Source: an uncultured Dehalococcoidales bacterium (GTDB taxonomy: Bacteria > Chloroflexota > Dehalococcoidia > E44-bin15). From it: a stretch of DNA of 64,000 nucleotides. The position numbers and the translations under genes are program-made. Location of the stretch: the NCBI GenBank assembly GCA_964443325.1, contig CAYUCL010000004.1, positions 5,885 to 69,884 on the forward strand, given 5' to 3'. The notes below the pieces were generated by a model, which did no database searches, was not told the origin of the DNA, and saw only the letters and a program-made list of their open reading frames with translations. This document shows, in pieces, positions 3,301 to 33,473 of the stretch (positions within the stretch are counted from its first letter, which is position 1; every line of letters begins with the position of its first letter).

Positions 3301-3330
3301 TTTGCCTCCTTAGCCTCGTTGAACTTCCTA

Positions 3331-5957: not shown

Positions 5958-5967
5958 TTCTTCCCCC

Positions 5968-6447: not shown

Positions 6448-6609
6448 TTCGCTACCTCCTTATTTTTTCTTTGGCTAGAGTAAATCTTACCTTCCTAAAA
6501 CACAGTAAAAAGCACCAAACAGACTCCATCCAAGCCATCGAAAGTCTACACAAACCCAATCGCCCTGTCAAGTATCTTAGGTCTGTTTTGCTTCGCTGGA
6601 CCACGACTA

Positions 6610-8751: not shown

Positions 8752-8862
8752 ACCCAGATTATAGCATCCTGGGGTAATCTGAAAAAGGGATGCGCCTCCT
8801 TGACTTATGACCGAATGTTATCAACAATGGGCGTTGCAAAGTAACTTAAAAGGAGGTAGCAA

Positions 8863-17160: not shown

Positions 17161-17532
17161 TTACTTTATCTCGTAGGAGCCAAAGATAAAGTCTAAGTCC
17201 TCTTCCAACGCCGAGACATTGGCGGGACGAAACAGCTTCTCATCGATATCAAGCATCATTTTCGTTTCACCGATGGCCGACCCCACAATGTGCACCCTTA
17301 CACACTCCTTTTGCCCTTTGCCTCCCTGGGTAGGCATTTTGAATGTAATAGTCGCCCGGGAAACGTGCGATGACCCTCCGGGAAGCGAGTATGTTTCCAG
17401 TTTTCTTTCCCCTAATGTTGCACCCTGCTTTATGACAAGGTCTTGCACCTCGTCATAGAGCATCTCCGGGTTAATGTTCTTGTATGCTTTTTTCACCTGC
17501 ATTCTTTTCCTTCTCCCTTTCCAAATCTCCAC
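17161..17532 (-). CDS. Hypothetical protein
   Basis: Open frame of 123 aa with no recognisable family. Tightly spaced with the downstream GGCT-like gene. Confidence 0.3.
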   Translation of the reverse strand: MEIWKGRRKRMQVKKAYKNINPEMLYDEVQDLVIKQGATLGERKLETYSLPGGSSHVSRATITFKMPTQGGKGQKECVRVHIVGSAIGETKMMLDIDEKLFRPANVSALEEDLDFIFGSYEIK

Positions 17533-17535
17533 GGT

Positions 17536-17937
17536 TCATACGATTCCCCAGTCTTTGTAACCCTGCTGTATTATTGCCACATATTCCAGAGAAGGCTGTG
17601 TCTCCTCTGATTGCTCCCGCATAATGTAGGTTATGGATTCCACACGCTCAGCATCCTCTGTTATCACCATCTTATTCACCCGATTGTAAATGGTGGGGTA
17701 GCCCTCATGCTTATCCAGCGACCTCAAGCATTTGTCCGAAATTTCATAAATAGCTCCGATAACTTTCTCACCTTGAAATGGCCTGATGGTGGCAGTTCCA
17801 CCGTGCCAATTTCTTGACCATCCAGAAAATATCAGCTTATGATTCGGCAAGGTAGCTACGAATTTGGGCTGACAATCAGGGCAGCGTGCCGACATCTGCC
17901 TACGACTTAGATTGGAGGCATAGGCAAAATAATTCAT
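17536..17937 (-). CDS. Gamma-glutamyl cyclotransferase-like (AIG2/GGCT) protein
   Basis: The MNYFAYASNL start matches the family's YGSNM motif region. The tracked ORF has a 32-aa N-terminal extension that is probably not translated. Confidence 0.6.
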   Translation of the reverse strand: MNYFAYASNLSRRQMSARCPDCQPKFVATLPNHKLIFSGWSRNWHGGTATIRPFQGEKVIGAIYEISDKCLRSLDKHEGYPTIYNRVNKMVITEDAERVESITYIMREQSEETQPSLEYVAIIQQGYKDWGIV

Positions 17938-18191: not shown

Positions 18192-20195
18192 ATGAACGAT
18201 AAAGCTGATACTGTTAAGGAAACAAACCGGTTATTACAAGGCATCGGATGGCTGGCAGATCGACCCCTTTTGACCGAGCTCAGTCTTCTAGCGCTAACGG
18301 TTCTTTTCGGGCTACAGGTGCTGAGGATGCTGGTGCCTGGTCTCGTCTGGTTGCTGGGCGACCGAATGGGCTGGAGCGCAATAGAGGCGGGCGGACTTGC
18401 CGCCATTATATTCCTCACCGCTTTCCTGGCAGGGCCACTCCGCCGTTTGCTGGGCAACCGCCTGGTAGTGATGGTCACCGCCGGCGGACTAGGTCTATTG
18501 CGATTAGTCATGCAGATTTGCCCGGGTATGCCATTGGTCCATCTGATCCTGGCAATGGTGGCAACAGCGCTGTTCGTTCTTTTCCTACCACCTTATCTGC
18601 GCAATTTGCGTAGCCGTGGCCGCCGGAGCATGGGCCACCTTGCTCTAGCACTATTAGTGGGTCTGATATTGGATACCGCCATTCACGGCGCCTTTAATAC
18701 CTATGACATAGGCTGGCAATCAGGTTTGCTGCCCTTGCTATTGACGCTATTCCTGGTACTGGTTCAATGGATAATGTTAGCAGGTATGACGTTCACGAGG
18801 AGTGTACATGCTGCCGGGACGCCCGATACCACAGCTCACGGAGTGCCAATGGGAAAGTCGTTTACCTGGTTGGCTATCGGACCCTTCCTGTTCCTTCAGT
18901 TGGTGATTTTCCAGAACATAGCCCGTCTGGCAGTGCTAACTGGTTGGCGGCTACCTTTAGCTTTTGGCTGGATACTGCTGGGCCAACTAGTTGGTCTAAT
19001 CGCCGCCGTATGGGTGCTACGTTGGAGACCGCGGACCTCGTGGCCCCTGGCCCTGATCTGCGGCCTTGGTCTGGTTGTCATTCTGGCGTTACAACACGTT
19101 CAAGTCGAGGTGCCAGCAGCCGTACTGTTCCTGGTCGGACAGATACTGTTATCGCTGCTAATCGTTCTGGTTTTCATTGGCATTGGAGAGAGCGCCCCGA
19201 AAGCGGGCTTCTCTAGCATCAACGTGGCCAATGGCCTGGGTATGATCCTTTTGCTGCTATTTATCCTCGCCTATTATGCGGTCTATGACATGAATCTTCC
19301 TTATAGTAACACCATCATAGAGCCCATAGCAGCTTTCGTTGTGGCAGCCTGCGCCATAGGTGCGTCTACTGGCCTGCGCCAAAGGATAAGGCTCCCCCGC
19401 AGGGTATGGCTGGCACCAGCCCTGGCGCTGCTCCTGCTGATAATACCCCTGGTAGGGGCTACCACCTGGCGGGCGCCGACTGCGGTCTCCGGTGAAGGCT
19501 TTCCAGTTCGCGTAATGACCTACAATCTGCACAACGGCTTCAACACGGAGGGGCGTCTTGATATGGAGGCGCTGGCCCAGGTCATTGAGGATAGCGATCC
19601 TGATATCGTAGCGCTACAAGAGATATCCAGGGGATGGGTAGTCAGCGGCAGACTCGATATGCTGATATGGCTATCGCAGCGGCTCGACTTGCCATATATT
19701 TTTGGCCCCACTGCAGACCCCTGCTGGGGAAATGCAATCCTCAGCCGCTACCCTATCGTAGAATATACCCAGCATGATTTGCCGCCTCGCGATCTAATCG
19801 TACCACGAGGCTTCACCGCGGCACTGATAGACCTGGGCAACGGCGATAGCCTGTGGGTCATCGCCACCCACTATCATCACATCGAGGGAGACACCGATAT
19901 TCGCCAGGTTCAATCCCATAGCATCATTGCCTTCTGGGAGGGTGAAGAGCGTACTGTGCTAATGGGAGACCTGAACGCGGAACCCAACGATGTTGAGATG
20001 GAGATGCTGCAGACCGTCGGCCTTGCGGATGCTATGGCAGGAATAGACCCTCCAGAATATACTTTCCCCTCGTTCGATCCCGACAGACGTATCGATTATA
20101 TACGAGTCTCGCCTGACCTAAGTGCCAGCAATGCTCACGTGCCGGTGAGCACCGCCTCTGATCACCTACCCGTAGTCGTAGAAATTGACCGCTAA
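18192..20195 (+). CDS. Polytopic membrane protein with C-terminal endonuclease/exonuclease/phosphatase (EEP) domain
   Basis: About 12 hydrophobic helices. The C-terminus has EEP motifs (VMTYNLHNGFN, ALQEISRGW, GDLNAEPN, SDHLPV). Confidence 0.7.
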   Translation: MNDKADTVKETNRLLQGIGWLADRPLLTELSLLALTVLFGLQVLRMLVPGLVWLLGDRMGWSAIEAGGLAAIIFLTAFLAGPLRRLLGNRLVVMVTAGGLGLLRLVMQICPGMPLVHLILAMVATALFVLFLPPYLRNLRSRGRRSMGHLALALLVGLILDTAIHGAFNTYDIGWQSGLLPLLLTLFLVLVQWIMLAGMTFTRSVHAAGTPDTTAHGVPMGKSFTWLAIGPFLFLQLVIFQNIARLAVLTGWRLPLAFGWILLGQLVGLIAAVWVLRWRPRTSWPLALICGLGLVVILALQHVQVEVPAAVLFLVGQILLSLLIVLVFIGIGESAPKAGFSSINVANGLGMILLLLFILAYYAVYDMNLPYSNTIIEPIAAFVVAACAIGASTGLRQRIRLPRRVWLAPALALLLLIIPLVGATTWRAPTAVSGEGFPVRVMTYNLHNGFNTEGRLDMEALAQVIEDSDPDIVALQEISRGWVVSGRLDMLIWLSQRLDLPYIFGPTADPCWGNAILSRYPIVEYTQHDLPPRDLIVPRGFTAALIDLGNGDSLWVIATHYHHIEGDTDIRQVQSHSIIAFWEGEERTVLMGDLNAEPNDVEMEMLQTVGLADAMAGIDPPEYTFPSFDPDRRIDYIRVSPDLSASNAHVPVSTASDHLPVVVEIDR

Positions 20196-20299
20196 ACCAG
20201 GAGGGCAGCTTCCAACCCCATTACAGAGATGGGTGCTGCTCTCGCCTTTGAGATTTCGTTGCCACACGAATCCTTGGGGAGCTTTCCTGTTTAGCTATA

Positions 20300-21556
20300 T
20301 TACTCCCTCTCCACTATGGTCGCGATGCCACATCCCGCACCACCGCATAACGTCTGCATACCCCATCTGAGGTTGTTGCGCACCATCCAGTGAACCATCT
20401 CGGTGAAGTAGAGGACACCAGAACAGCCTATTGGATGCCCGATGGCTATCGCTCCACCCGTGGGGTTAATTCGCGGGTCGTCATAAGCTATGCCGAACTC
20501 GTCACAGAAGGCCATGACTGGTGATGCAAAGGCTTCGTTAGGCTCCCAAACTTCCATATCATCCATGGTGCGCCCGGCACGAGCGAGTGCCTTCTTCATC
20601 GCTGGTATTGGGGCAAGAAGCTGTATCTTGGGCTCGCCACCAGCCACCGCCATCGATCTTATGGTCGCCATGGGCTCCAATCCCAATTCCTTCGCCTTCT
20701 CCTTTGACATCAGCATGCAGGCTGCCGCACAATCGACAATGCCCGACGAACTCCCGGCGGTCACCTTCCCTCCCTCTTCCGCTTTCTTGAACCTCGGTTC
20801 AAGCTTCTGCATCCTCTCCCACGCAGCATCAGGGTTATCCAGTGCCTCAGCCCTTGGGGTCTCATCCTTGTCGACGATCACCGGTGGCTGGCCATCAACC
20901 TCCACCTTGGCGGGGATGACCCTCTTCCTGTACCACTCCTCATCTCTGATGGCCTTAACCGCCTTCTGATGGCTCCACAGCCCTAACCTGTCCATGTCCT
21001 CGCGCGAATAGTCATATCTCTGGGCAATCGCCTCAGCGGAGAGACCCATGTTCAGAATCTCAGCACCCCCTCTCCTCACAACATCGGGGTGGAAGGACAC
21101 AGGCAATCCCGCTTTCATCGCCGCCTGAACCTGGGAGCCCATGGCGTAGTGGCTCATGTTCTCCACCCCGCAAGCAATGAAGATGTCGCCGCAGCCGGTC
21201 ATGATCGCCTGTGCCTGAGAGTTGACCGCCTGGAGGCCCCCATTGCAGTAGCGGTCAATTGTCCAACCGGGAACCTCGTCTGGGAGCCCCGATGCCAGAA
21301 CGGCAAACCTACCGATATTTCCCCCTTGCTCGCCGATTTGCATCGAGCACCCACAGGCTACATCCTCGATCCAAAGAGGATCGAATTCGGGGCACTTCTC
21401 CTTCACACGCGCCATCAATCCCTGTATCGCCTGGGCGATGAGGACTTGCGCCGAGACGTTCATGTAGGCCCCGGCCTTCTCCATCCCCTTCCATCCCGAC
21501 TTCCCGCTTGGAAGCCGGACCGCATCTACGACCACAGCTTCAGTTAGTTCTTTCAA
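20300..21556 (-). CDS. Thiolase-like protein (SCP-x/lipid-transfer-type thiolase)
   Basis: Thiolase fold with an active-site Cys region and a C-terminal GHPIGCSG motif. Confidence 0.7.
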   Translation of the reverse strand: MKELTEAVVVDAVRLPSGKSGWKGMEKAGAYMNVSAQVLIAQAIQGLMARVKEKCPEFDPLWIEDVACGCSMQIGEQGGNIGRFAVLASGLPDEVPGWTIDRYCNGGLQAVNSQAQAIMTGCGDIFIACGVENMSHYAMGSQVQAAMKAGLPVSFHPDVVRRGGAEILNMGLSAEAIAQRYDYSREDMDRLGLWSHQKAVKAIRDEEWYRKRVIPAKVEVDGQPPVIVDKDETPRAEALDNPDAAWERMQKLEPRFKKAEEGGKVTAGSSSGIVDCAAACMLMSKEKAKELGLEPMATIRSMAVAGGEPKIQLLAPIPAMKKALARAGRTMDDMEVWEPNEAFASPVMAFCDEFGIAYDDPRINPTGGAIAIGHPIGCSGVLYFTEMVHWMVRNNLRWGMQTLCGGAGCGIATIVERE

Positions 21557-21748
21557 CTTTTCCCCTCCTTAATATTATCTCTAAGAAGCCTCCATATTAT
21601 CTGCTTAGCTTCCATTACCACCCTCGCTGCTTCCCGTCCAAATCGACCCGTATCGTCTTAGCGTACACTATGCAGTAGTATACCATCTTATGCTGGCAAA
21701 GACAGCTTAAAAGAGCGCAGGCCTCATTTTTTTCAGACGTTGCCAAGA

Positions 21749-21837
21749 CACTATTTTTATTGATATTGACAGTAGATAGGAACGAGCCTAGACTTATCAT
21801 TGGATATGGATATACGAAATCTGAATAGTGCCCTGGA
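21749..21837 (+). repeat. Direct repeat, left copy (~90 bp); includes a truncated duplicate of the 5' end of the 24027 gene
   Basis: CACTATTTT...ACAGTAGATAG-GAACGAGCCTAGACTTATCATTGGATATGGATATACGAAATCTGAATAGTGCCCTGGAA matches 23970–24059 with a few substitutions and one indel. It encodes MDIRNLNSALEGQ* from an ATG at 21805. Confidence 0.85.
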
Positions 21838-21948
21838 AGGACAATGATAGATAAGGAAAAAGGAAATGAGTTTTAAAAATGAACCACAGCAAAAGATTGA
21901 TATTGAATAAGTAGAAGAGGTTCATACCAAACCAGTTTTATACAATTT

Positions 21949-22323
21949 GAATAGTCCCCAATAATTGACATAAAAATTACCAATTGCGATGGAAAAGGTC
22001 AGACATCCGGTCAATCAAAAAGATGGGAGGCTACAGTCTGGATTTGCTTAAAGATCAGGGAAGATAGAGTTTGGAAAGCAACTTGGTTTTCAACAGGGCT
22101 TGGAGGACTTATTACGGCATATGGAAGTGCCCTGACTGAAATGGTGAAAGGGAAAACAATAAGCGAAGCTTTGCGGATTCAAGCCGAGGATATATCTACA
22201 AGTTTGGATTTACATGAAACTGGATTTGGAGCTTGGTTTACAAGAACATTAGTAGAGGCAATCAACAATTACAATATTTATAAGTCAGCTCCATGGAAGA
22301 GAATGTATGAAAAGAAATATTAG
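21949..22323 (+). pseudogene. IscU/NifU-like scaffold remnant lacking the conserved cysteines and an in-frame start
   Basis: Translation (…TWFSTGLGGLITAYGSALTEMVKGKTISEALRIQAEDISTSLDLHETGFGAWFTRTLVEAINNY) aligns with IscU (…[62 protein letters not shown]). The first ATG in this frame is at 22141, and the Cys ligands are replaced. Confidence 0.35.
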
Positions 22324-22348
22324 AAGAATGGGGAAAGGAGGTGAAAGT

Positions 22349-22744
22349 ATGGAATTGTTAATAGCTTTCAGTACCGATGATGGTGAGAATTTGAACAATG
22401 GTCATGCAGGTGACGCCAAGTATTTCTATCTCTATAACTTTTTCGATAATAAGGAAGAGTTTGTTGAACAAAGAATGAATATCGAATTGAGGAGAGATCA
22501 ATCTCTAAAACCTGGAAGTCCAGAAATGGCCAAGGCTAGAGCTGCTGTTTTTAAGAACTTGGATGCATTGGTTGGTAAGGAATTCGGCCCAGGTCTTCCC
22601 AATTTGTTGAAGCAATTTGTCTGTGTATTGATAAGGGTAGACACTATCAGTAAGGCAATTGAAGTCGTGCGTAACAATCTGGACAGAATAAGGGAAGAGA
22701 AGGAGAAAAAAGAAGGTAGAAAACATATTGTGCTGAGACCATAG
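22349..22744 (+). CDS. NifX/NifB-like dinitrogenase FeMo-cofactor-binding domain protein with KE-rich tail
   Basis: MELLIAFSTDDGENLNNGHAGDAKYFYLY follows the MKIAxxSxDGxxxxxHFGxAxxFxIY pattern. A strong AAGGAGGTG RBS lies 7 nt upstream of the ATG at 22349 (the tracked ORF starts 42 nt earlier). Confidence 0.5.
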   Translation: MELLIAFSTDDGENLNNGHAGDAKYFYLYNFFDNKEEFVEQRMNIELRRDQSLKPGSPEMAKARAAVFKNLDALVGKEFGPGLPNLLKQFVCVLIRVDTISKAIEVVRNNLDRIREEKEKKEGRKHIVLRP

Positions 22745-22857
22745 CGGATAGTAGAGACCAATTGCAAAGATGGAGGTTGGAAGTTATTCTAAACAAGTAA
22801 AATAGCAGCAGAATAAGGGCGTTTTTTTAAACTTTAACAATGGAAGGTAAATAGAAA

Positions 22858-23247
22858 ATGGTAGCTAGAACAGACGTTAAAGAAAAGATAAAGAAAATTT
22901 ATGAGGTTTTGCCCAAATTGGATGACCAGCGATGTGGTTATAAAACTTGTGGGAAATTTGCTAAGGCAGTAGCTGAAGGAAAGGCGCCATGTTATGGATG
23001 TGTTAGTGGTGGGCCGGAGGTAGCTGCTAAAGTGTGTGAAATTATGGGAGCCAGAGTCCCTGAACAAGCAACTCGTCAGTCTGGCATTAATGCTGGATTT
23101 TACCAGCCCGCATTCGGTGGAGGTGGAAGGGTAGGAAGGGGCATGGGGCAAGGTTTTGGTAAAGGTCGGGGCATTGGACCAGGCCGAGGTATGGGTCGAG
23201 GTGGTGGCATGGGCCGAGGTTTTGGCAGGGGGCGACCTAGAAGATAA
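22858..23247 (+). CDS. RnfB-N-terminal-like Fe–S cluster domain fused to a Gly/Arg-rich (GRG-repeat) tail
   Basis: LPKLDDQRCGYKTCGKFAKAVAEGKAPCYGCVSGGPEVAAKVCEIMG resembles the RnfB N-terminal FeS domain (LPxTxCGxCGYPGCRxYAEAIxxGxA..CP). The C-terminal ~45 aa are GRGMGQGFGKGRGIGPGRGMGRGGGMGRGFGRGRPRR. Confidence 0.5.
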   Translation: MVARTDVKEKIKKIYEVLPKLDDQRCGYKTCGKFAKAVAEGKAPCYGCVSGGPEVAAKVCEIMGARVPEQATRQSGINAGFYQPAFGGGGRVGRGMGQGFGKGRGIGPGRGMGRGGGMGRGFGRGRPRR

Positions 23248-23303
23248 AGTAGAAAAAGGCAATAGTAGATTCCCTAATCATCGGTGGATTTAAGGAAGGA
23301 TAA

Positions 23304-23873
23304 ATGTTCCCGATAATAAAAAATCAGAGAAGGACTAAAGTTTTTTATGCTTTAACCTCGATAATCTACGACTCAATAAATCCTCACATCTACACAAAAG
23401 AAATGAAAGATATTCTAATTAAAGAGATCGAGGGAGATAAGATATTGGATGTTGGAGTTGGAACTGGTTATACCACTAGGGAATCTGAAATAGCAATTGG
23501 GATAGATATATCCAAAAGGATGCTGTTTCGAGCTAATGATTATAGAGGCTCTTTAATTTTGGCTGATGCTCTCTATGCGCCCTTTATACCAGGAACTTTC
23601 GATACCATTATCTCTGCTGGCTCTCTTTATTATTTCCCTGAGCCCTTGGAAGGATTAAGAATATTTCATTCCTTGCTAAAGGCAAACGGGGTAGTTCTGT
23701 ACCTCGGCCCAAATATAAAATTTTTAAAGTTGTTGGTTCAGGTCTACAACCAAGCAGAGCTAGAAGAATTGTTTGGACATAGTAGATTTAGAATTGAGAA
23801 AATAATGGAGGTAGGACGGGGTAACATTGCCTATTTTGCTAAGGCGAGGAAGCAAAGAGAGCATACCGGGTAG
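23304..23873 (+). CDS. Class I SAM-dependent methyltransferase
   Basis: ILDVGVGTGYTT glycine-rich SAM-binding motif. Confidence 0.65.
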   Translation: MFPIIKNQRRTKVFYALTSIIYDSINPHIYTKEMKDILIKEIEGDKILDVGVGTGYTTRESEIAIGIDISKRMLFRANDYRGSLILADALYAPFIPGTFDTIISAGSLYYFPEPLEGLRIFHSLLKANGVVLYLGPNIKFLKLLVQVYNQAELEELFGHSRFRIEKIMEVGRGNIAYFAKARKQREHTG

Positions 23874-23969
23874 TGCCAGATAGTCAGAATAGGGATTAGA
23901 ATATTTAGAGAAAGTAGAGAGAAAATGTTGTGTTTCAATGGATGTCATTCAGTCAGCTTGCTACCCAGT

Positions 23970-24059
23970 CACTATTTTGGGGACATTTACAGTAGATAGA
24001 GTACGAGCCTAGACTTATCGTTAAATATGGATACACGAAATCTGAATAGTGCCCTGGAA
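23970..24059 (+). repeat. Direct repeat, right copy (~90 bp), spanning the promoter and 5' end of the 24027 gene
   Basis: See the left copy at 21749–21837. Confidence 0.85.
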
Positions 24060-24653
24060 ACCTTATTAAAAGAAAACGCCGTCAACCAGTTGGCAAAGAT
24101 CTTAGCCTACGCCTCAAAAAAAGGCAGGATCTCCTACGAAGAGGCAGAACACGTACTTGATGATGACCCCGAGGATGCTTTGATTCTAGCTGAGCAGCAG
24201 AGGTTACTGATTCCGCTGAGATCAGTCAAAGATACGCTGGAATGGGATCATTCAGTTTTACTTCTCAAACCAGGTGAAATTTACAAGATGCCCAACGTGG
24301 TTAGGTATTTAGTAGAACAAGCTAGTAGAACCGGTCAATGGGATCCAGAATATGCTGTGGCCCAGATCTTCAGGGAGATGGGAGAGCCAAGCTGGAATAT
24401 AATGCCAGCATTGGTTAAGAAACTGGGAGAGGAAGCTAGCTATAACAAGCTCAATGCTGTTCAGATAAAGCAAGTATGTAGCCAGCTTGGGCTGGGAGGT
24501 AGGGTGGATTCACTAATCGCTGGACTCAAGGGAGCTGGAGCGATGAGCCCTAAGTTGAGTTCGATTGTTGAAGTGATCAGGGCAGGATCACCTATATATG
24601 AACTCAATCCCTCTCTTTTCATGTCGACATCTGGCAACGCAACCTCCACTTGA
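24027..24653 (+). CDS. Hypothetical protein immediately upstream of cas10 (possible HTH N-terminus)
   Basis: 208-aa ORF with no recognisable family. Its first 11 codons are duplicated at 21805. Confidence 0.4.
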   Translation: MDTRNLNSALETLLKENAVNQLAKILAYASKKGRISYEEAEHVLDDDPEDALILAEQQRLLIPLRSVKDTLEWDHSVLLLKPGEIYKMPNVVRYLVEQASRTGQWDPEYAVAQIFREMGEPSWNIMPALVKKLGEEASYNKLNAVQIKQVCSQLGLGGRVDSLIAGLKGAGAMSPKLSSIVEVIRAGSPIYELNPSLFMSTSGNATST

Positions 24654-24780
24654 TACTATTTCACTGCCTGTTAGAGCACGTCATTGCCATCCTTCAATAC
24701 CGGCCTATTTGACATCTTCCTAAGTGCCTGAGATAATTTGGTAACCCCATGGCCCTGGTTGGGCTCATGGCGGAGATGAT

Positions 24781-27201
24781 ATGTCCCAAGAAGAGAGCCT
24801 CATTCTTGCTGCTTTGCTCCACGATGTAGGTAAGTTCTGGCAACGAACTTCTCACCCGCTCGAACGGAAGGACCAAGCCCATGCCCTCCTCTCCCATCAG
24901 TTTATTCTGGACCACTTTGGCCAGAAATGGAGCCAAAGCGCCAGCCTGGCATCTGCACATCACCAACCTGACGATTACCTGGGCAAGTTGATTCAGCTTG
25001 CAGACCATCTATCGTCCCAAGAAAGGGATCACCAAGAGGAGGGCAACCCCGCTGTCAAACAGCTCCTGTCGGTCTTCTCGCAGGTTGGCTCCGGTAGCAG
25101 CCCTTATTATCTGCCTCTAAAGCCTCTGGACATTCACAGGGATCCTATCTTTCCCAAGCAAGAGACAGACAAGGAACCAGAGAAGTCCTACACTGCATTG
25201 TGGGATAACTTTGTCCAAGAAACGGCAACGGTCACGGGACTGTATGGGACAGATTTCCCAGCACTCATCAATACGTTTTATCACCTTCTGTGCAAGTTCA
25301 CCTGGTGCATCCCCAGCGCCTACAATGCGGACATCCCCGATGTCTCGCTGTTTGACCATCTCCGCACCACATGCGCCATCGCCCTCAGCCTATATCGCTC
25401 CGGCATCTCTGAGGCTGATGTGGATTTACTGCTCGCAGGCAGCTCTGATGCAGCGAAAGAGAAACAGTACCTGTCCCTGATAGGCGGCGATATTTGCGGC
25501 GTGCAGCGTTTTCTCTACACACAAACTTCCAGGGGGGTAGCCAAAGGGATTCGCGGGCGCTCGTTCTATCTGGAGCTCCTGACTGAGTTAGCAGCCCTTT
25601 GGCTGTCACGCCAGTTAGGGCTCTACACCATCAACCTGCTCTATGTCGGCGGGGGGCACTTTTATATTCTAGCCCACCACATAGACGGTCAGACGCTATC
25701 ATCTCTACGTAGGGATTTTTCACAGGCGCTATTAGAGCATCACCACGGTGCGCTGCACCTGGCTCTTGCAACTCAAGAACTGTGCCCGCAGGACTTCGGC
25801 CATTTCTCCAAAGCATTGGCTGGTGTACACAAACAGCTTGGCTGGGCAAAGCGGCGGCCATTTGGCGACCTGGCACCAGGGAAATTCTACGAAGAGATTC
25901 TCAAACCAAAAGGTGCCAGAGAACCTGCAGACGTATGCGCGGTGTGCGGGGCTGAGGGTGCGCACCATAAGCTCGGAGAGGGAGAGGAGAGAGAATGTGA
26001 CCTGTGCCATTCTCTCAAGCACCTGGGAGAGCAACTGGCGGATGCCAACTACCTCCTTATCGCCCCCAGACAAGAGGGACGGCAAGATGTTCAGGTTCAA
26101 GGATGGCAAAAGCTCTTTTTCTTTGGCCTAGGATTTGTGGTGAAGCTCTTGGATGAACCCCATCACTCGGATTTGAACAGGCTTGGCCCAGGGGCGACAT
26201 TGCTGCGACTGAACTCCACCGACTTTCTGAGCACCGAGGTAGTCAACGCTATCAAGACCGTGAAGAATCCACCAGCGCTTGGGTTTCGTTTTCTAGCCCA
26301 GGCGTCACCACGAAAGAAGGTGGAGCCTGCAGAGATTGCGGATTTTGAGACCGTGGCCCAGGCTTCTGAAGGAGTGCCTTTATTGGGTGTCTTGCGCATG
26401 GACGTGGACGACGTAGGATGGCTTTTCCAGCATGGGCTTGGCGAAGATGCCAGCATATCCAGAGTCTGCTCAATGAGTTTCCTTCTCCGTCTTTTTTTCG
26501 AGGGCTGGCTCAATAGCCTGTGTACCAGGTGGAACCCCCATGACGGGAAAGACAAGGTCTACGCCATCTATTCCGGGGGTGATGACCTTCTTATCACCAG
26601 CAGTTGGAGTGAGATAGCCGAACTTGCCTGGAATATACACCGCGACTTTTCAGAGTTTACTTGCTATAACCCCCAGGTGCACATCTCCGGCGGTACGACA
26701 GTCGATGACCCCCACCTCCCTCTGTATCAACTAATTAAAGCAGCTACAGAATCTTTGGAGAGCGGCGCCAAAAGAATGCCGGGGAAGAACGCCTTCACCT
26801 TCCTCGGCCAAACGCTCAACTGGTCACAGTTTCAGAAGGCGGGCGAGTGGCGCGATATCTTGAAGAGTATAATAGCCATCAATGGACGGATTGAAAAGGA
26901 TAAGGCGCCTCGAACCGTCCTTAATCTTTTGATGGAGCTTCACCAAAGCTACCTCGAAGGACAGAGTATGAATGACAGCAGGCGGCTGTTCCATGGGCCA
27001 ACGATTCACTACGGCCCCTGGATGTGGCACGCAGCCTATCATCTTTCCCGTATGATGGAAGGGGTAGAAGGCCCGGCCCAGGCCCAACTAGCAGAGATAA
27101 GGGAAGCTCTAATGCAAGCCGAGCGCCTGTCAGTTGAGCTTCCCCAGCTAGCACTGGCGGCACGGTGGGTGGAACTGCTCACTCGCACGGAGGGACTATG
27201 A
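24781..27201 (+). CDS. cas10: Type III CRISPR Cas10/Csm1 (HD nuclease + Palm/cyclase)
   Basis: N-terminal HD motif (ALLHDVGKF). A treble-clef zinc finger (CAVCG...CDLCHS). GGDD cyclase motif (IYSGGDDLLI). 806 aa. Confidence 0.9.
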   Translation: MSQEESLILAALLHDVGKFWQRTSHPLERKDQAHALLSHQFILDHFGQKWSQSASLASAHHQPDDYLGKLIQLADHLSSQERDHQEEGNPAVKQLLSVFSQVGSGSSPYYLPLKPLDIHRDPIFPKQETDKEPEKSYTALWDNFVQETATVTGLYGTDFPALINTFYHLLCKFTWCIPSAYNADIPDVSLFDHLRTTCAIALSLYRSGISEADVDLLLAGSSDAAKEKQYLSLIGGDICGVQRFLYTQTSRGVAKGIRGRSFYLELLTELAALWLSRQLGLYTINLLYVGGGHFYILAHHIDGQTLSSLRRDFSQALLEHHHGALHLALATQELCPQDFGHFSKALAGVHKQLGWAKRRPFGDLAPGKFYEEILKPKGAREPADVCAVCGAEGAHHKLGEGEERECDLCHSLKHLGEQLADANYLLIAPRQEGRQDVQVQGWQKLFFFGLGFVVKLLDEPHHSDLNRLGPGATLLRLNSTDFLSTEVVNAIKTVKNPPALGFRFLAQASPRKKVEPAEIADFETVAQASEGVPLLGVLRMDVDDVGWLFQHGLGEDASISRVCSMSFLLRLFFEGWLNSLCTRWNPHDGKDKVYAIYSGGDDLLITSSWSEIAELAWNIHRDFSEFTCYNPQVHISGGTTVDDPHLPLYQLIKAATESLESGAKRMPGKNAFTFLGQTLNWSQFQKAGEWRDILKSIIAINGRIEKDKAPRTVLNLLMELHQSYLEGQSMNDSRRLFHGPTIHYGPWMWHAAYHLSRMMEGVEGPAQAQLAEIREALMQAERLSVELPQLALAARWVELLTRTEGL

Positions 27202-27698
27202 CGCAGGTGGAAGGGTCTTCAGCGGAGTCTCAGCCACAAAAGGAACCGGCGTCTTCAGAGGAACTGCGCAAGATCATTGTCGACGGAGATGCCGAGGTAC
27301 TGGTAAACTGCGCCGAGCGTATAGGGAGGAAGCTGAAAGAAATGAACCTGGCGACGCATCAAATACGAGGCATCCTCGGTGCTATTCATATGATCGAGAC
27401 GACCTGGTCCTCTAATCCGGCTGAAGCACAGCGGGAGCTCCGTCTGCTGAAGCCCAAGCTGGCATATCAGTCAAAGAAAGTGAAGGAAACACTGGATGGG
27501 CAGGATGTATTTCCCGTGGAGGAATTGCGAGAGGTCATTTGCGGCGCTATTGACATCGTGCTCAAGCAAACAGACGAGCCAGAGGCAGGCGGAAAGGCAA
27601 ATGCGGGGGGGACGGAGCGCCACAACTCCTTCAGGCGCTTGGTGAGTTTCTTTGAGGCCATTGTCGCATATCACCGCTACCACGGCGGCAGGGACTAG
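27165..27698 (+). CDS. csm2: Csm2 (Cas11 small subunit); true start probably at 27195
   Basis: Small alpha-helical protein containing the LLKPKLAYQSKK motif typical of Csm2. Positioned between cas10 and csm3. Confidence 0.75.
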   Translation: MGGTAHSHGGTMTQVEGSSAESQPQKEPASSEELRKIIVDGDAEVLVNCAERIGRKLKEMNLATHQIRGILGAIHMIETTWSSNPAEAQRELRLLKPKLAYQSKKVKETLDGQDVFPVEELREVICGAIDIVLKQTDEPEAGGKANAGGTERHNSFRRLVSFFEAIVAYHRYHGGRD

Positions 27699-27707
27699 GG
27701 GAGTGTA

Positions 27708-28523
27708 ATGGCAGAAACCGAACGTAAAATCCAGTTGCATGGAAGGATATTCATCACCGGCAGCATAGAAATCGTGACTGGCCTGCACATCAGAGCGGCA
27801 AGGAGAGCTTTAGCCATTGGCGGTTTGGACAATCCTGTAGTGCGAAACCCCATTACCGGCCGCCCTTATATCCCCGGCTCCTCGTTAAAGGGAAAACTGC
27901 GCTCCCTGCTGGAAAAGCACTACAACAAGTCTCAACAATGGGCAATGGGTGGAGTTCGTATCCATGCCTGTTACAAGTTTGACGAAAAGGGAAACAGAAT
28001 ACCCGACGAAGAAGCCTACTCGAATTGTCAAATCTGTCCCATCTTTGGCATACCTGCAGGGTTCGCCGTGCTACCAACCCGCCTCATAGTGCGGGATGTG
28101 CCTCTTGACGAGAACAGCGCACAAAGGCTAGCCAGGACCAGGACGGAACTCCCCTTCACCGAGGTCAAATGGGAAACATCCCTTGACCGGGTTACCGCGG
28201 CGGCTACTCCCCGCCAGGTCGAGCGGGTGCCTGCCGGTGCCATCTTCGCCCCTTTGGAACTGGTCTACAATGTGTACGAGGATGCCGATGTGGACCGTTT
28301 CATGCACCTGCTGGACGCCATGCGGTTTCTGGAGGATGACTATCTCGGTGGCCTGGGAACCCGCGGCAGTGGCAAGATCGCTTTCCAGGAGCTTTCACTG
28401 ACCGCCCGCACCCGCGAGCGGTATATGGAGGAGAAGACTTTCGAGACAGGGTTATCCCTGAGAGATCTCATGGCCAAGGAAGAGGAGACGATGAACTGGC
28501 TACACCAGACGTTCTCCCGGTAG
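27708..28523 (+). CDS. csm3: Csm3 (Cas7 backbone RAMP)
   Basis: GGLDNPVVRNPITGRPYIPGSSLKGKLRSLLE is near-canonical for Csm3, including the G-rich loop. Confidence 0.9.
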   Translation: MAETERKIQLHGRIFITGSIEIVTGLHIRAARRALAIGGLDNPVVRNPITGRPYIPGSSLKGKLRSLLEKHYNKSQQWAMGGVRIHACYKFDEKGNRIPDEEAYSNCQICPIFGIPAGFAVLPTRLIVRDVPLDENSAQRLARTRTELPFTEVKWETSLDRVTAAATPRQVERVPAGAIFAPLELVYNVYEDADVDRFMHLLDAMRFLEDDYLGGLGTRGSGKIAFQELSLTARTRERYMEEKTFETGLSLRDLMAKEEETMNWLHQTFSR

Positions 28524-29576
28524 ATGTTGATCATGGCAGAGACATGGCTGTACAAGCTTAAGCCCCGCTCTTCCTTTCACTTCGGTGAGGGGGGCCTGGG
28601 CATTGAGGCTACGGACGAAGTCTTCCATTCCGATTCCTTTTTTGGTGCTCTGGCCATAGGTGTGAGAATGTGGGAGGGCGAGAATGCGCTGGTTGAGCTC
28701 CTCTCCCAGTTTCAGGAGCAGCCACCTTTCAGAATCACTTCCCTGTTCCCCTATGCTGGTGAGGTGCTTCTTTTCCCCAATCCCATGGTCAATCTCCCCC
28801 TTGAGGGAGAAGCCGAGGAAAAGCAAGGTATTCGGCTTAAATACGTACGCTTCATCTCCCAGGGTATCTTAGAACCAGTGCTTCGTAGCGAGCCTCTGGA
28901 TGGGCATCTAATCAGGGATAACCTTTGTCAGGGTGGAAGGGTGTGGCTTACGCAGCAGGAGCGCACCGCCTTGCCGCTAGCAGGAAATGAACCTATCCTG
29001 TGGCGACGCCACATCGTGACCAAGGTTGCCGTGGATCGGCTGGGTATGGCTTCACATAGCTATTACGCCGCACAGGTTGGTTTCTCCCCTGGCTGTGGTC
29101 TCTATTTCCTCCTCGAAGTAGAAGACCCTGCTTCAAAAAGGCTTGTGGAAAGCGCACTATATTATTTATCTGAGGCTGGACTTGGTGGCGAAAGGAGCGC
29201 TGGTCATGGCCAGTTTTCGTTCGAGTCCGCCAGCCCATTTGCACCATTCTGGCCTACGGATGGGGACTCGTTCATCACCCTCTCGCTTTATCACCCCACA
29301 CTGCCTGAGCTGGAGGCCGGTGTCCTAGACGGACAGGCCGCCTACGAACTTACTCAGAGGGGCGGGTGGGTGAACTCTCCAGAGCGAGCGGGGCAGAGGC
29401 GCAAGTCCGCCTCCTTCATCGGTGAAGGGTCTGTGCTATGCTCCCTGGGCAAGCCAAGCTATGGGGAACTGGTAGATGTTACACCGGAACTAGAGCCCGA
29501 GAAGCACCCTGTATATCGCTACGGGTTTGCCTTCCCCATTGGAGTTCATAGAAGGGTGGAAGTCGATGAGCCGTGA
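28524..29576 (+). CDS. csm4: Csm4 (Cas5-group RAMP)
   Basis: N-terminal YKLKPRSSFHFGEGG...SDSFFGAL is typical of Csm4. Its position in the operon also fits. Confidence 0.8.
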   Translation: MLIMAETWLYKLKPRSSFHFGEGGLGIEATDEVFHSDSFFGALAIGVRMWEGENALVELLSQFQEQPPFRITSLFPYAGEVLLFPNPMVNLPLEGEAEEKQGIRLKYVRFISQGILEPVLRSEPLDGHLIRDNLCQGGRVWLTQQERTALPLAGNEPILWRRHIVTKVAVDRLGMASHSYYAAQVGFSPGCGLYFLLEVEDPASKRLVESALYYLSEAGLGGERSAGHGQFSFESASPFAPFWPTDGDSFITLSLYHPTLPELEAGVLDGQAAYELTQRGGWVNSPERAGQRRKSASFIGEGSVLCSLGKPSYGELVDVTPELEPEKHPVYRYGFAFPIGVHRRVEVDEP

Positions 29577-30669
29577 ACTGCACAGCACCTATCGGCTGAC
29601 CCTGGAGACCCTCTCACCTATTCACATCGGCTCAGGGAAAGGTGAGTTGCTCCTGGACTACGATTTCATTGTGGAGGGGAACCGTGCACTGGTGGTGAAC
29701 CTGGAACGGCTGCTGGGAGAGATAGACGACAAGAGGCTCAAAGCGGCAGGAGCGGATCCAAAGCTGAGTCTTCTGCTGGCCCCAGAAGAGATAGAGCGAG
29801 TCAAAGCCTATGAGATAGATATCGCCGCAGGGCACCCCGACCGGATTCGGGAGCATGTGAAGGATGCCTTCGACAAGCTTTACATTCCCGGAAGCTCGAT
29901 AAAGGGGGCGCTGCGCACCGCCCTGGCCTGGTCCGCCCACCACGGCGCACTAACGCTGGGCGGGCTGGGTGAGCGCAATGACCCCACAAAGGCCGATGAC
30001 TCGGTTGAGGCGGGAATATTCGACTACGATCCGAGAGACACCCATCGCGAACTGCTACGCGCTATGCGGTTAACCGACGCATACCCGCAGGACGGTGTCA
30101 TGCCCAGAGCATTGCCGGTTACCGTCTTTTCGCTTTACGGTCAGCCACCCTCTCTCAAACCAAGGGGAGAGCCAACTTTTTTAGAGGTGATCCCCAAAGG
30201 CACCACCATTGAGTCTACCCTGACTCTGGATAGATATGTTCTTCGGCCTGAACGCAGGGTACGGCGAATGTATCACTTTCGCAGGCGACACTTTTTCGAC
30301 CAGTTGGTGGAACGCTGCCGTGCATTCTCCGCAGAGATAGTTAAGCTCGAGCTTGACTTCTATAGCGATTGCGGCATCTGGAAGCTGCAGGGGTTCTACG
30401 AAACGTTGGCGAGGAGACAGGCAGCACTGAAAGATAGCGAATTCCTCCTGCCCATCGGTTGGGGCACCGGTTGGTTGGGCAAGACCCTGGGGACCAAGTT
30501 GACCCCAGGTGAGGTGAGCACGGTTGCCGAGACCTATCACCTGGAGAAGTGGCACGGCTCGCTATTCCCCAAAGTCTTCCCCAAGACCAGGCGGCTCGTT
30601 GGCGATGGGCAAGCTAGAGAACCTCTCGGCTGGGTGAGAATTAGCCTGCAGGGCCCCACCGGCCGTTGA
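29566..30669 (+). CDS. csm5: Csm5 (Cas7-group RAMP)
   Basis: YRLTLETLSPIHIGSG and LYIPGSSIKGALRTAL RAMP motifs. The likely ATG at 29566 overlaps the end of csm4. Confidence 0.8.
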   Translation: MSRELHSTYRLTLETLSPIHIGSGKGELLLDYDFIVEGNRALVVNLERLLGEIDDKRLKAAGADPKLSLLLAPEEIERVKAYEIDIAAGHPDRIREHVKDAFDKLYIPGSSIKGALRTALAWSAHHGALTLGGLGERNDPTKADDSVEAGIFDYDPRDTHRELLRAMRLTDAYPQDGVMPRALPVTVFSLYGQPPSLKPRGEPTFLEVIPKGTTIESTLTLDRYVLRPERRVRRMYHFRRRHFFDQLVERCRAFSAEIVKLELDFYSDCGIWKLQGFYETLARRQAALKDSEFLLPIGWGTGWLGKTLGTKLTPGEVSTVAETYHLEKWHGSLFPKVFPKTRRLVGDGQAREPLGWVRISLQGPTGR

Positions 30670-30780
30670 GCCTGCCTGGAAATAGCCATAAACGAAAGCT
30701 GGCTGCCATAAAGAACGCTAATAGTCACAAGGAGCGCCTGGTTCACTAATCCTCGACACTTTCTGGAGGTAACAAAACAA

Positions 30781-31623
30781 ATGCTGCTGAGCGCCATCAT
30801 AGCGCTACAAGCCCGCAAGGAAGCATTATTGCCCCCCTACCTGGGCAAGGCAGCACATGCGCTATTCCTTCGACTTGTGGCCACTACTGACCCCAACATG
30901 GGAGCAAAGCTACACGATGATAGTGAGGCCAAGCCCTTCACTGTGTCGGGCCTTGTGGGCCTGCCCAGGAGGAGCGCAACAATGCATATCAATGCTGGCC
31001 AGGTTTGCTTATTGCGCTTCACTAGCTATGAGGACGACCTCTCAAACCTGCTGGCGGAAAAGGTGTTGCCATCGTTGCCTCAGGAGTTTGAACTTGAGAA
31101 CGCCCTCTTTTCAGTCGAGGATGTCTTCATGCAAAGCGGCGCTCATCCCTTGAGCAGACAAACGTCATATCAGGAGTTAGCTCAAGGGCATCTGCTCGAT
31201 GCCAGAAGCGCCCCCACAAGAGTCAAACTCTTTTTCATGTCGCCTACTACATTCAGGTCGGGGGGGAAGAATATACCGTTGCCGCTTCCAGGATTGGTGT
31301 TTGGCAGCCTCGCCGACCGATGGAATGCCGTGTCGCCAATCACCATCTCCAGAGAGGTAAGACGTTACGCTGAGGAATTTGTGGCAATTTCCCAATGCCA
31401 GCTCAAAACACGTACGGTGGAAATTGCTGGAGGCAAACAGGTAGGTTTTATCGGTTCGTGCTCGTATGTCGCGCTGAGGCATGACGCATACTGGCGTAGG
31501 GTTATGAACCTGCTGGCGGAGTTCGCCTTTTACAGCGGCGTGGGCTATAAGACAACCATGGGGTTTGGCCAGACGTTCACCCACCGTTTCGCTGCAAAAC
31601 GCTCCACCTCGCAATCAAGCTGA
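30781..31623 (+). CDS. cas6: Cas6 crRNA endoribonuclease
   Basis: The C-terminal glycine-rich loop GVGYKTTMGFGQ matches the Cas6 GhGxxxxxGhG signature. 280 aa. Confidence 0.8.
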   Translation: MLLSAIIALQARKEALLPPYLGKAAHALFLRLVATTDPNMGAKLHDDSEAKPFTVSGLVGLPRRSATMHINAGQVCLLRFTSYEDDLSNLLAEKVLPSLPQEFELENALFSVEDVFMQSGAHPLSRQTSYQELAQGHLLDARSAPTRVKLFFMSPTTFRSGGKNIPLPLPGLVFGSLADRWNAVSPITISREVRRYAEEFVAISQCQLKTRTVEIAGGKQVGFIGSCSYVALRHDAYWRRVMNLLAEFAFYSGVGYKTTMGFGQTFTHRFAAKRSTSQSS

Positions 31624-31743
31624 GACTTGTTGTAACCTCACTATCAGCCCGGCAGCACAAACCACCAAGCAAATAAACCTCTAATCTTGTTAAGATATAT
31701 GAATGACATCTTCACGCTGTGCCAGGCTTGTCCCTAGAGAATT

Positions 31744-31767
31744 AGGGGCGTTCAATTGAACGCCCCT
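31744..31767. promoter_or_regulatory. Perfect 24-nt palindrome AGGGGCGTTCAATTGAACGCCCCT downstream of cas6
   Basis: Exact self-complementary sequence with no T-tract following it. It could be a transcript-end hairpin or a dimeric protein binding site. Confidence 0.4.
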
Positions 31768-32572: not shown

Positions 32573-32827
32573 ATGACCAGAACTGTTAAAGTAACTCTGA
32601 GCTTACCACATGGATTACTTCGCTTTGCTGATGGATTGGCTGCCAGGGAAAAGGTTAGTCGCAGCAAATTCATAGCTGGTGTTCTACAGAAGCTGGCTGA
32701 CAATGAAGAGGAACGTCTAATGGCAGAAGGCTATCTGGCTATGGCAAACGAAAACCAGGAATTTGCCGAGACTGTTGTGCCATTGGTTGATGAAGTATTA
32801 TCGGATTGGAAGCGAAATGGCCATTAG
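32573..32827 (+). CDS. Ribbon-helix-helix (CopG/MazE-like) antitoxin
   Basis: 84-aa N-terminal RHH (TVKVTLSLPHGLLRFADGLAAREKVSRSKFI). The gene overlaps the mazF start. Confidence 0.65.
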   Translation: MTRTVKVTLSLPHGLLRFADGLAAREKVSRSKFIAGVLQKLADNEEERLMAEGYLAMANENQEFAETVVPLVDEVLSDWKRNGH

Positions 32828-33158
32828 CCGTGGTGAGATATACTGGGTAAACTGGAATCCGGGAAGGGGTAGAGAGCAGGTCGGCATACGACCTGCTCTC
32901 GTTATTCAGAACGATACAGGCAATCAATACAGTCCGACGACCATCGTTGCTGCTATTACTACAGCCCCAGTCAAGGCATATCCATTTATCGTGCCCATTA
33001 CAGCCTCTGAAAGCGGATTGCCGCAGGACAGCAGTGTGAATCTCTCTACCATATTGACTGTCTCGAGAGATAGACTGAAAGATAAGTGTAGTGAGCTCAG
33101 TGCCCAAAAGATGGCCGAAGTGAATGATGCGATCAACAAGAGCCTGGCACTGGATTGA
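32820..33158 (+). CDS. mazF: MazF/PemK-family endoribonuclease toxin
   Basis: RGEIYWVNWNPGRGREQVGIRPALVIQND...TIVAAITT fits the PemK/MazF fold. The ATG at 32820 overlaps the antitoxin by 8 nt; the tracked ORF begins 57 nt earlier. Confidence 0.8.
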   Translation, partial: AISRGEIYWVNWNPGRGREQVGIRPALVIQNDTGNQYSPTTIVAAITTAPVKAYPFIVPITASESGLPQDSSVNLSTILTVSRDRLKDKCSELSAQKMAEVNDAINKSLALD

Positions 33159-33250
33159 AACAAACGTAGTGTCGAGGTTTCGCTCGTTCGTGGTAGCAAT
33201 ATAGATATAAAGCCTGTCTGACTCTGCACACAAGGAGATAACAGCCCCTT

Positions 33251-33385
33251 GATCCGTGAGTCCGGATTCAAAAGAGTCGTATGTTAGTTGGTTTTTTCTG
33301 AGGCGTGAAGGTCCTTCTGTGAAGGATTCCTTCACCAAAGCTGAGGGAGAGGACTCCCTCAGTCCTCAAGAAGAATCCACGGATT
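33251..33385 (+). repeat. Dispersed ~130-bp structured repeat element, copy A (MITE-like or small RNA)
   Basis: About 90% identical to 41830–41960. Internal hairpins GTGAAGG..CCTTCAC and GAGGGAG..CTCCCTC, with short inverted termini (GATCCGTG … CACGGATT). Confidence 0.7.
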
Positions 33386-33473
33386 AAGGAGCCAATCAAG
33401 TATCGATAAGAGCGTTGTGTATGCTATAATACTGGTGTATCACGATGGAAGGGGGGACTATGGGTATTGAATC

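Follow-up and report, generated by a model that had tools for sequence, protein, structure and literature searches.

Some 2 kb of DNA bounded by direct repeats and encoding proteins of an iron–sulfur (Fe-S) character lies a short way upstream of a type III-A CRISPR (clustered regularly interspaced short palindromic repeats) operon in an uncultured Dehalococcoidales bacterium, and the locus raises the question of how this cassette arrived there and whether it has anything to do with its CRISPR neighbours. The window, by which we mean the whole stretch of DNA analysed here, comprises 64,000 nucleotides of contig CAYUCL010000004.1 (assembly GCA_964443325.1). We propose that the cassette is probably a 2.1-kb fragment of a redox/Fe-S gene island that was horizontally acquired from an organism of lower guanine-plus-cytosine (GC) content and integrated by ~100-115 bp of homology into a resident gene of the AF_2141 family, with no role in CRISPR function. 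The features that carry this reading are the following.

20300-21556, minus strand: thiolase gene (Pfam Thiolase_N/C), the conserved left neighbour of the insertion site.
21743-21838, plus strand: left repeat copy, with the native promoter and first 11 codons of an AF_2141-family gene, collinear with the single copy in the related contigs L010, L011 and L012.
21839-23957, plus strand: inserted foreign segment, ~2.1 kb, GC 0.40, absent from six related contigs, its ends marked by homology to contigs L085 and L014.
23964-24059, plus strand: right repeat copy, with a weakened promoter-like site and the real start of the AF_2141-family gene.
24027-24653, plus strand: target gene of the AF_2141 family (PF27374), 208 amino acids (aa), with predicted winged-helix domains.

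For the empty-site comparison, we used the contigs that hold the closest homologs of the 24027-24653 product, namely L010 (94% protein identity), L011 and L012 (89%), L021 (83%, a Dehalococcoidales metagenome-assembled genome, MAG), L013 (63%) and L023 (57%, a Chloroflexota MAG). On all six, the thiolase gene is followed directly by the AF_2141-family gene without the cassette. The next gene is cas10 in L010, L013 and L023, and the contigs of L011, L012 and L021 end before the next gene. L010 shows the order most fully, with thiolase on the minus strand, then AF_2141 on the plus strand, then cas10-csm2-csm3-csm4-csm5-cas6, and nothing between. The thiolase product is 94% identical in protein to its counterpart in L021, and the thiolase gene is ~96% identical in DNA to that in L010. 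By blastn, positions 1-2182 of L010 matched window positions 19655-21838 at 91.6% identity and positions 2079-9870 matched 23953-31764 at 90.9%, so that ~104 bp of the single copy in L010 aligned to both repeat copies of the window. The distance from the left copy to the thiolase gene is the native one. Because the cassette is absent from all six related contigs, the occupied site represents an insertion, a gain specific to the lineage of this Dehalococcoidales bacterium. These empty sites bear out the duplicative insertion that an initial annotation, made from the letters of the window, had put forward. When the junction core CGRAATCTGAATAGYGCCCTGGAA was used to look among metagenome contigs for a site occupied by something else, a single contig came back, L012, which has the empty site.

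The insert is visibly different in composition, as had been noticed at the outset: its GC is 0.396 over 21839-23963, against 0.577 in the thiolase gene and 0.539 in cas10, with 0.461 in the target gene at 24027-24653. It carries the following genes.

21867-22323, plus strand: Cys-less IscU-like pseudogene, delimited by tblastn with the intact ortholog of L085.
22349-22744, plus strand: NifX-like protein, 131 aa, intact, PF02579 (Nitro_FeMo-Co).
22858-23247, plus strand: FeS-domain protein with a Gly-Arg repeat tail, 129 aa, PF04060 of the RnfB/CFeSP N-terminal type, four Cys.
23304-23873, plus strand: class I S-adenosylmethionine (SAM)-dependent methyltransferase, 189 aa, Methyltransf_11 (6.5e-11).

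The first of these had been described as an IscU-like remnant without Cys ligands, a description that is right about the family and the missing Cys and wrong about what the absence means. The intact L085 ortholog, which scored 38 bits against a NifU_N cut-off of 22, is 151 aa long and contains zero Cys, so the Cys-less state is a trait of the subfamily and not the mark of a remnant. The window copy is in addition a pseudogene. Its ATG at 21867 is followed by an in-frame TAA at 21909-21911 and a frameshift near 21970, tblastn of the 151-aa ortholog gave alignments in two different frames, the first for residues 1-35 and the second for residues 37-151 (67% identity), and its 60-aa open reading frame (ORF) alone scored 13.3 bits, below the NifU_N cut-off. 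Two properties of an IscU/NifU_N scaffold are therefore missing here, namely the three Cys ligands (judged on the L085 ortholog) and, in the window, an intact ORF.

The assignments of the other three proteins held. The NifX-like protein passed the gathering cut-off of PF02579 marginally (E = 4e-6, 27.4 bits against 26.3), and its homologs are of equal length and 82-88% identical; NifX proper (TIGR02663) scored 18.7 bits against a cut-off of 112, and no nif genes lie nearby. The FeS protein matched PF04060 over residues 18-49 (E = 1.4e-7), the remainder being the Gly-Arg tail, and it has homologs in L085 (127 aa) and L018 (120 aa). It has PF04060 only, with no ferredoxin-type 4Fe-4S domains, and its score against the RnfB model TIGR01944 was 38.9 bits against 68.7. 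A match to DUF5320, which had been suggested as a check, did not appear at E<=0.1 in the insert ORFs; the FeS protein gave only PF04060 and a weak Cyanophycin_syn match. The methyltransferase assignment is supported by the Methyltransf_11 match listed above. In NCBIfam, none of the NifX-like, FeS and methyltransferase proteins fell into a named equivalog. The window domains thus resemble the NifX/NafY/NifB-C-terminal (PF02579) and RnfB/CFeSP-type (PF04060) proteins of anaerobes in passing the Pfam cut-offs and in having IscU-like, CbiA/ParA-type ATPase, thioredoxin and methyltransferase genes among their neighbours; they differ from them in having no nif context, in scoring far below the nifX and rnfB equivalog cut-offs, and in the Gly-Arg tail without RnfB ferredoxin domains.

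We then compared the cassette with its closest relatives elsewhere. Contigs L085, L086 and L087 (GC 0.41-0.44) carry the IscU-like gene, a 25-bp gap, the NifX-like gene (88% aa identity) and a 127-aa FeS/Gly-Arg gene in the same order and spacing as the window, with DNA identities of 86% over 22102-22748 and 74% over 22824-23300. The methyltransferase module (23240-23925) has its counterpart in L014, L015 and L016, at 88.5% DNA identity and there placed behind a KaiC-like ATPase gene. In L088 the NifX-like gene (87% DNA identity) occurs in a different gene order, and the 175-kb contig L018 has a row of AF_2141, molybdopterin oxidoreductase, FeS protein (68% aa), Zn ribbon and methyltransferase (67% aa). 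In the L085-type, L014-type, L088 and L018 loci, these homologs lie within long co-directional islands, and no cas genes were found in the islands that hold them. Island contents include thioredoxins (some with DUF8180), thioredoxin reductase-type flavoproteins, glutaredoxin, Cpn10, DnaJ, FeS_assembly_P, CbiA/ParA-type ATPases, an FeS-CobA fusion, DUF1638, DUF3786 and several methyltransferases. The islands at L017/L018 (1-11500) and L085 (1-16396) also contain nitroreductase, molybdopterin oxidoreductase, a KaiC-like ATPase, a metallo-beta-lactamase (MBL)-fold protein and AF_2141; gene order in them varies by genome, and single modules show 74-88% DNA identity to the window cassette. Named methyltransferase matches of <=52% identity would hint at an archaeal origin of the cassette; its closest relatives are at 67-88%.

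The direct repeats were delimited with a repeat search, MAFFT and blastn as 21743-21838 and 23964-24059. The pair first placed at 21749–21837 and 23970–24059 and called near-identical is real; its left ends were drawn a few bases short, and near-identity applies only to the 3' 57 nt (93%) and to the last 35 nt, where there is one mismatch. Over the 97 aligned columns the identity is 85.6% with one 1-nt indel, the spacing is 2221 bp, the promoter half is the more diverged part, and the copies have an exact run of ~25 bp in common. The 35-nt core occurs exactly twice in the window, with 0 occurrences expected from 100 shuffles. Weak homology prolongs the right copy back to ~23945, so that the duplicated target measures ~115 bp, and the left copy back to ~21724. 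The left copy also contains the truncated duplicate of the gene start, read from the sequence exactly as it had been claimed.

21806-21847, plus strand: remnant ORF MDIRNLNSALEGQ followed by a stop, with 11 native codons, 2 new codons and the stop.

This ORF starts with ATG at 21806, continues with 10 further native codons and ends in GGA CAA TGA, the TGA lying at 21845-21847.

The left copy is 88-92% identical to the single copy in L010, L011 and L012, and the two window copies differ from each other at 15 of 97 positions, compared with 8 differences between the left copy and L012, 9 for L011 and 12 for L010. About six of the differences between the copies are states that are present in other lineages. 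The right copy has states in common with L021 (GGACATT) and with L010 (AGAG.AC), and the left copy has states in common with L011 and L012 (TTATTGATATTG and AGGA-AC). The right-copy allele reads GGGGACATTTACA...AGAGTAC and is represented by CACTATTTTGGGGACATTTACAGTAGATAGAGTACGAGCC. On these patterns, the copies do not look like a fresh duplication, and the simplest reading is that the left copy would be resident sequence and the right copy would have come with the cassette from a related strain.

At the left junction, the sequence reads ...GCCCTGGAA up to the breakpoint and GGACAATGATAGATAAGG after it, L085-type homology begins within ~5 bp of 21839, and the joined DNA is donor intergenic sequence, 28 bp before the IscU-like ATG. 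At the right junction, L014 homology continues to ~23957, a point that falls within the next called ORF of L014 and ~85 bp beyond the methyltransferase stop, and native intergenic homology (L010) begins at ~23945; the overlap of the two is an imperfect microhomology of ~13 bp (TTATTCACTTAGC / TTATTTTTTCAGC). Relative to the donor genes, then, the breakpoints fall arbitrarily, which is what one would expect of illegitimate joining and not of site-specific recombination.

Under the reading that we favour, a 2.1-kb fragment of a redox/Fe-S 'maintenance' gene island would have been acquired from a lower-GC organism and integrated 33 bp into the resident AF_2141-family coding sequence, the homology used being presumably the ~100-115 bp promoter and 5' segment of that gene. 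Two routes may be envisaged. In the first, a circular DNA with the cassette and one copy of the segment would have entered by a single (Campbell-type) crossover, located in the identical last ~25 bp. In the second, linear DNA would have been joined by homology-facilitated illegitimate recombination, the donor being a related strain with the cassette upstream of its own AF_2141. By either route the segment would end up in two copies: on the left a native one, cut off after codon 11, and on the right an imported, diverged one, joined to the intact gene.

The kind of event is already known, namely the gain of foreign DNA by homology-assisted or illegitimate recombination with target duplication, and the window is a new instance of it. 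The locus has the geometry of a Campbell-type product: the repeats are the homology segment, of which there are two copies in direct orientation, with a truncated gene on the left and, on the right, an intact one behind its own promoter copy, foreign DNA that needs no recombinase of its own lies between them, and relatives have single-copy empty sites. It is unlike that model in being a natural case with ~100 bp of homology at ~85-90% identity, and in that the circle and its origin are hypothetical. Accounts of homology-facilitated illegitimate recombination exist for naturally competent bacteria and for Escherichia coli conjugation (PMC3240628), and the junction anatomy of the window is compatible with it, that is, with one homologous anchor and one illegitimate, microhomology-type junction without mobile-element functions. 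In the window, the outcome is a duplication of recipient DNA, and both the donor and a competence of Dehalococcoidales are putative. [quoted passage not shown] Those modules consist of other genes in other organisms, and the remnant in the window is a promoter with an 11-codon stub. In the Vibrio case, incoming modules reportedly enter by recombination at a conserved flank, and parts of the previous arrangement stay behind as remnants.

To find parallel cases, we looked in the retrieved AF_2141 loci for repeats that involve the beginning of AF_2141 and, more generally, for direct repeats of >=70 bp. In L048, a Dehalococcoidales MAG, a 510-bp direct repeat of 99.4% identity (9422-9931 / 17200-17709) consists of the upstream region/promoter and first 108 codons of a SHOCT-domain gene, truncated in the left copy and intact in the right. 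The enclosed 7.3 kb begins with AF_2141, 64 bp after the junction, which is followed by Fur, two thioredoxins, DnaJ, a thioredoxin reductase-type flavoprotein, an ICMT-type methyltransferase and an Exo_endo_phos protein; no recombinase was found among the ten ORFs scanned. In L080, a 111-bp repeat of 97% identity (1222-1332 / 2904-3014) is an internal fragment of a CbiA/ParA-type ATPase gene, and its second copy follows a methyltransferase gene and an internally deleted AF_2141 remnant (89 aa), the picture of a rearrangement scar. Because L048, and with it the related scar of L080, parallel the window, the duplicative acquisition of island pieces without a recombinase on the insert recurs in Dehalococcoidales.

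The junctions fall inside the 5' end of AF_2141 in the window and 64 bp upstream of it in L048, and the scar abuts the AF_2141 remnant in L080; ascertainment bias is strong here, as all three loci were chosen for containing AF_2141 and the closeness of the junctions to this gene may be an effect of that choice. A broader proposal would be that island segments move among Dehalococcoidales genomes by a recombinase-free 'homology-handle' route, each provided with a short stretch that duplicates the promoter and 5' end of its landing gene, and that AF_2141, predicted to be a multi-winged-helix DNA-binding protein, marks or promotes the junctions. We rate this proposal as distinctly improbable.

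Several points weigh against acquisition of the cassette through the homology of the AF_2141 start. Neither a donor contig in which a closely related AF_2141 directly follows the cassette nor a circular form was found; the excision junction of the latter would read ...CAGTCAGCTTGCTA-[one repeat copy]-GGACAATGATAGATAAGG, and exact-protein look-ups gave integrated forms only. A homology of ~100 bp at ~85-90% identity is short for RecA-dependent recombination. A donor tract beyond the right repeat was looked for and rejected, the sliding identity against L010 and L011 showing none and AF_2141 being ~96% identical to L010, the same as on the thiolase side. The spacer between the thiolase gene and AF_2141 is 70-72% identical to L010 just upstream of the repeat (21594-21743), with the flanking genes at ~96%. 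Given how fast this spacer evolves, part of the divergence seen in the right copy could be due to constraint having relaxed once a duplication had taken place in situ. Lastly, the role of the cassette and of AF_2141 is one that we infer from domains and neighbourhoods only.

The alternative that survives best is a one-step illegitimate insertion with duplication in situ, in which a staggered break, or template switching of the kind proposed for microhomology-mediated break-induced replication (MMBIR), would have let copying resume ~100-115 bp upstream, so that both copies would be resident and would have diverged later. The microhomology at the right junction, the arbitrary breakpoints relative to donor genes, the missing recombinase, the fast evolution of the intergenic region and the other scars in such islands (L080 and other ~100 bp repeats) all agree with it. 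The substitutions fit it less well: the 15 of 97 differences between the copies exceed those between the left copy and the sister empty sites (8-12 of 97-99), though those lineages have no insertion, and ~6 of them are states of other lineages rather than unique changes. We give this alternative a minor but appreciable chance.

A second alternative is a non-autonomous cassette, similar to a cis-mobilizable element (CIME) or an integron cassette, that was mobilised site-specifically by a recombinase acting in trans and whose repeats would be attL and attR. The direct repeats on either side of the insert, the imported look of the right copy and the similar architecture of L048 speak for it, as does a large serine recombinase (Resolvase, Recombinase and Zn_ribbon_recom domains) at 34606-36018, ~10.5 kb downstream of the cassette. 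This gene is the sole recombinase met among the window ORFs scanned, and no att sites were identified for it. Serine recombinases act at short att sites, where the crossover spans 2 bp, and are not known to make 100-bp repeats. The repeat is moreover local target sequence, different in sequence and in length between the window (97 bp) and L048 (510 bp), the cassette ends at arbitrary points of the donor island, and the six related sites are all empty and hold no other cassettes. Consistent with the initial annotation, no recombinase or transposase domain was detected in the insert ORFs by the ORF and Pfam scan. No terminal inverted repeats were found at the insert ends, and the spacers at 22745-22857, 23248-23303 and 23874-23963 folded no better than shuffles on either strand (z from -1.2 to +1.4). 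We hold site-specific mobilisation to be improbable.

More specific mobile elements were tried and rejected on the same kind of evidence. An integron gene cassette was rejected because the three spacers have no attC-like hairpins and no tyrosine recombinase was present among the ORFs scanned next to the insert; the insert resembles integron cassettes and clusters of attC sites lacking integron-integrases (CALINs) in consisting of small, compact, co-oriented genes of foreign composition that recur in varied contexts, and is unlike them in having neither attC hairpins nor intI/attI and in that its repeats are target copies, not recombination sites. A transposon, insertion sequence (IS) or miniature inverted-repeat transposable element (MITE) was rejected for want of end inverted repeats and a transposase and because the duplication is ~100 bp and not short. 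For an att-site integrative element or CIME, there is no integrase inside, and the related sites are empty in 6 of 6 cases, with none holding another element. A phage or plasmid origin was rejected as well: profile scans with the NifX-like protein, the methyltransferase and AF_2141 found no relatives on viral contigs, and blastn found none in plasmid/phage collections.

The surroundings of the serine recombinase merit separate description. The gene adjoins a CT398-like coiled-coil/Zn-ribbon gene (33901-34602) and an RNase H-like gene (36026-36430), and it is enclosed by another direct repeat of ~160 nt at 79% identity (33231-33390 / 41806-41965), with a nearly identical core of ~100 nt. The core contains two perfect hairpins, CTGAGGGAG..CTCCCTCAG and GTGAAGGA..TCCTTCAC, and the minus-strand genes that have a copy just upstream of them are a hypothetical gene at 32739-33338 and an NfeD/SPFH (Band_7) pair at 39661-41723. 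We considered and rejected this repeat as the boundary of a second insertion, the RNase P RNA (36469-36841) lying between the copies and both copies being a structured motif upstream of minus-strand genes. It matched no Rfam family at gathering score and is a candidate cis-regulatory RNA or DNA motif.

We next consider whether the cassette is a new accessory module of the CRISPR system, with Fe-S and methyltransferase proteins acting together with Cas10/Csm, for example in signalling or regulation. The neighbouring features are as follows.

24709-24737, plus strand: cas10 promoter-like site TTGACA-17-(TG)GATAAT, 11/12 matches.
24781-31623, plus strand: type III-A operon cas10-csm2-csm3-csm4-csm5-cas6, a neighbour of the insertion and not part of it.

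No CRISPR array and no cas1/cas2 were detected in the window; in L010, L013 and L023 this operon likewise comes after AF_2141, there with no cassette. Two points favour such a module: the end of the insert and cas10, which have the same orientation, are 722 bp apart, and members of this clade (window, L010, L013 and L023) have AF_2141 as a conserved gene upstream of cas10. We took a census of AF_2141 itself. A profile of 40 proteins recovered 64 loci in GTDB species genomes, from Dehalococcoidia, Desulfobacteraceae, Desulfatiglandales, Syntrophus, Bipolaricaulota and Promethearchaeota, and neighbours within 10 kb were identified by tblastn with the window proteins. An FeS-domain homolog was present near 18 of the 64 loci, a NifX-like homolog near 5, an IscU-like homolog near 4 and Cas10 near 1 (L023).

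All ORFs of these loci were also clustered, and each cluster was named from a representative sequence. The most frequent neighbours were a thioredoxin (~175 aa) and a pyridine-nucleotide-disulfide oxidoreductase (~446 aa), in 21 loci each, followed by a 216-aa protein that we take to be DUF1638 (20 loci), a small FeS protein (~123 aa, 16 loci), a CbiA/ParA-type ATPase (15 loci), a 643-aa protein with an N-terminal 2Fe-2S ferredoxin motif, presumably corrinoid-activase-like (14 loci), a Fur-family regulator (13 loci) and a methyltransferase (11 loci). The names DUF8180, DUF1638 and PF04060 in these islands stem from precomputed Pfam labels of similar genes or from reading of the sequence. The PF27374 label of AF_2141 was likewise precomputed, on the identical protein and all 120 listed homologs; the local Pfam scan gave no family, a structure search found no significant PDB sequence match (best E = 0.56), and a literature search on AF_2141 returned no relevant paper.

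Because the neighbours of AF_2141 include an FeS-domain gene in 18 of 64 loci compared with cas10 in 1 of 64, the cassette goes functionally with AF_2141 and not with CRISPR, and its closeness to cas10 is explained by the fact that the csm operon of this clade has AF_2141 as its conserved neighbour on the upstream side. The link to cas10 that the initial annotation had implied, and the co-occurrence with type III loci that it had suggested looking for, are not supported: the cassette is missing from all related type III-A loci, its homologs sit in cas-free islands, and cas10 has its own promoter-like site at 24709-24737. In addition, PADLOC returned only a generic methyltransferase-domain match, and the first cassette gene is a pseudogene. 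We consider a CRISPR accessory module very unlikely.

A chimera joined by the metagenome assembly through the short repeat, conceivable for a window from a MAG whose repeats have an exact run of ~25 bp in common, is vanishingly unlikely: assembly artefact is excluded because independent contigs reproduce the junctions at 100% identity to the window, with L002 and L007 (independent Joint Genome Institute, JGI, assemblies) crossing both junctions and L001 (which starts within the insert), L003, and the Logan assemblies L004 and L005 crossing only the right one, which L006 also covers at 99.8%, and a chimera would not yield a second, diverged copy of the target.

Returning to the acquired island fragment, its position has possible consequences for expression, given two promoter-like sites.

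21766-21794, plus strand: promoter-like site TTGACA-17-TAGACT in the left copy, 10/12 matches, conserved in the empty sites and now preceding the 13-codon stub and the cassette.
23986-24015, plus strand: weakened promoter-like site TTTACA-18-TAGACT in the right copy, upstream of the AF_2141 start.

No terminator-like site was found on the plus strand from 21400 to 25000. The NifX-like, FeS/Gly-Arg and methyltransferase genes may thus be transcribed from the captured native promoter, and AF_2141 may be expressed by read-through, from the weakened promoter copy, or both. The cassette would keep the Fe-S/cofactor-handling role of its source islands; the type III-A operon would be unaffected, and the cassette would play no part in CRISPR immunity.

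The locus is a natural gene gain for which both occupied and empty sites are at hand, with no integrase or transposase on the insert, and in which a duplication of ~100 bp passes the resident promoter on to the genes that came in. With it falls an inference that is tempting but wrong, namely that these Fe-S proteins form a new accessory module of type III CRISPR systems. AF_2141 (PF27374) co-occurs with small FeS-domain, NifX-like, Cys-less IscU-like, thioredoxin-system and methyltransferase genes, an uncharacterised association that is found in large co-directional islands of Dehalococcoidia, Desulfobacterales and Asgard archaea. The function and regulation of such redox/cofactor islands appear to be undescribed. 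More than the insertion itself, this island association of AF_2141, together with the recurrence seen in L048, is a lead worth following.

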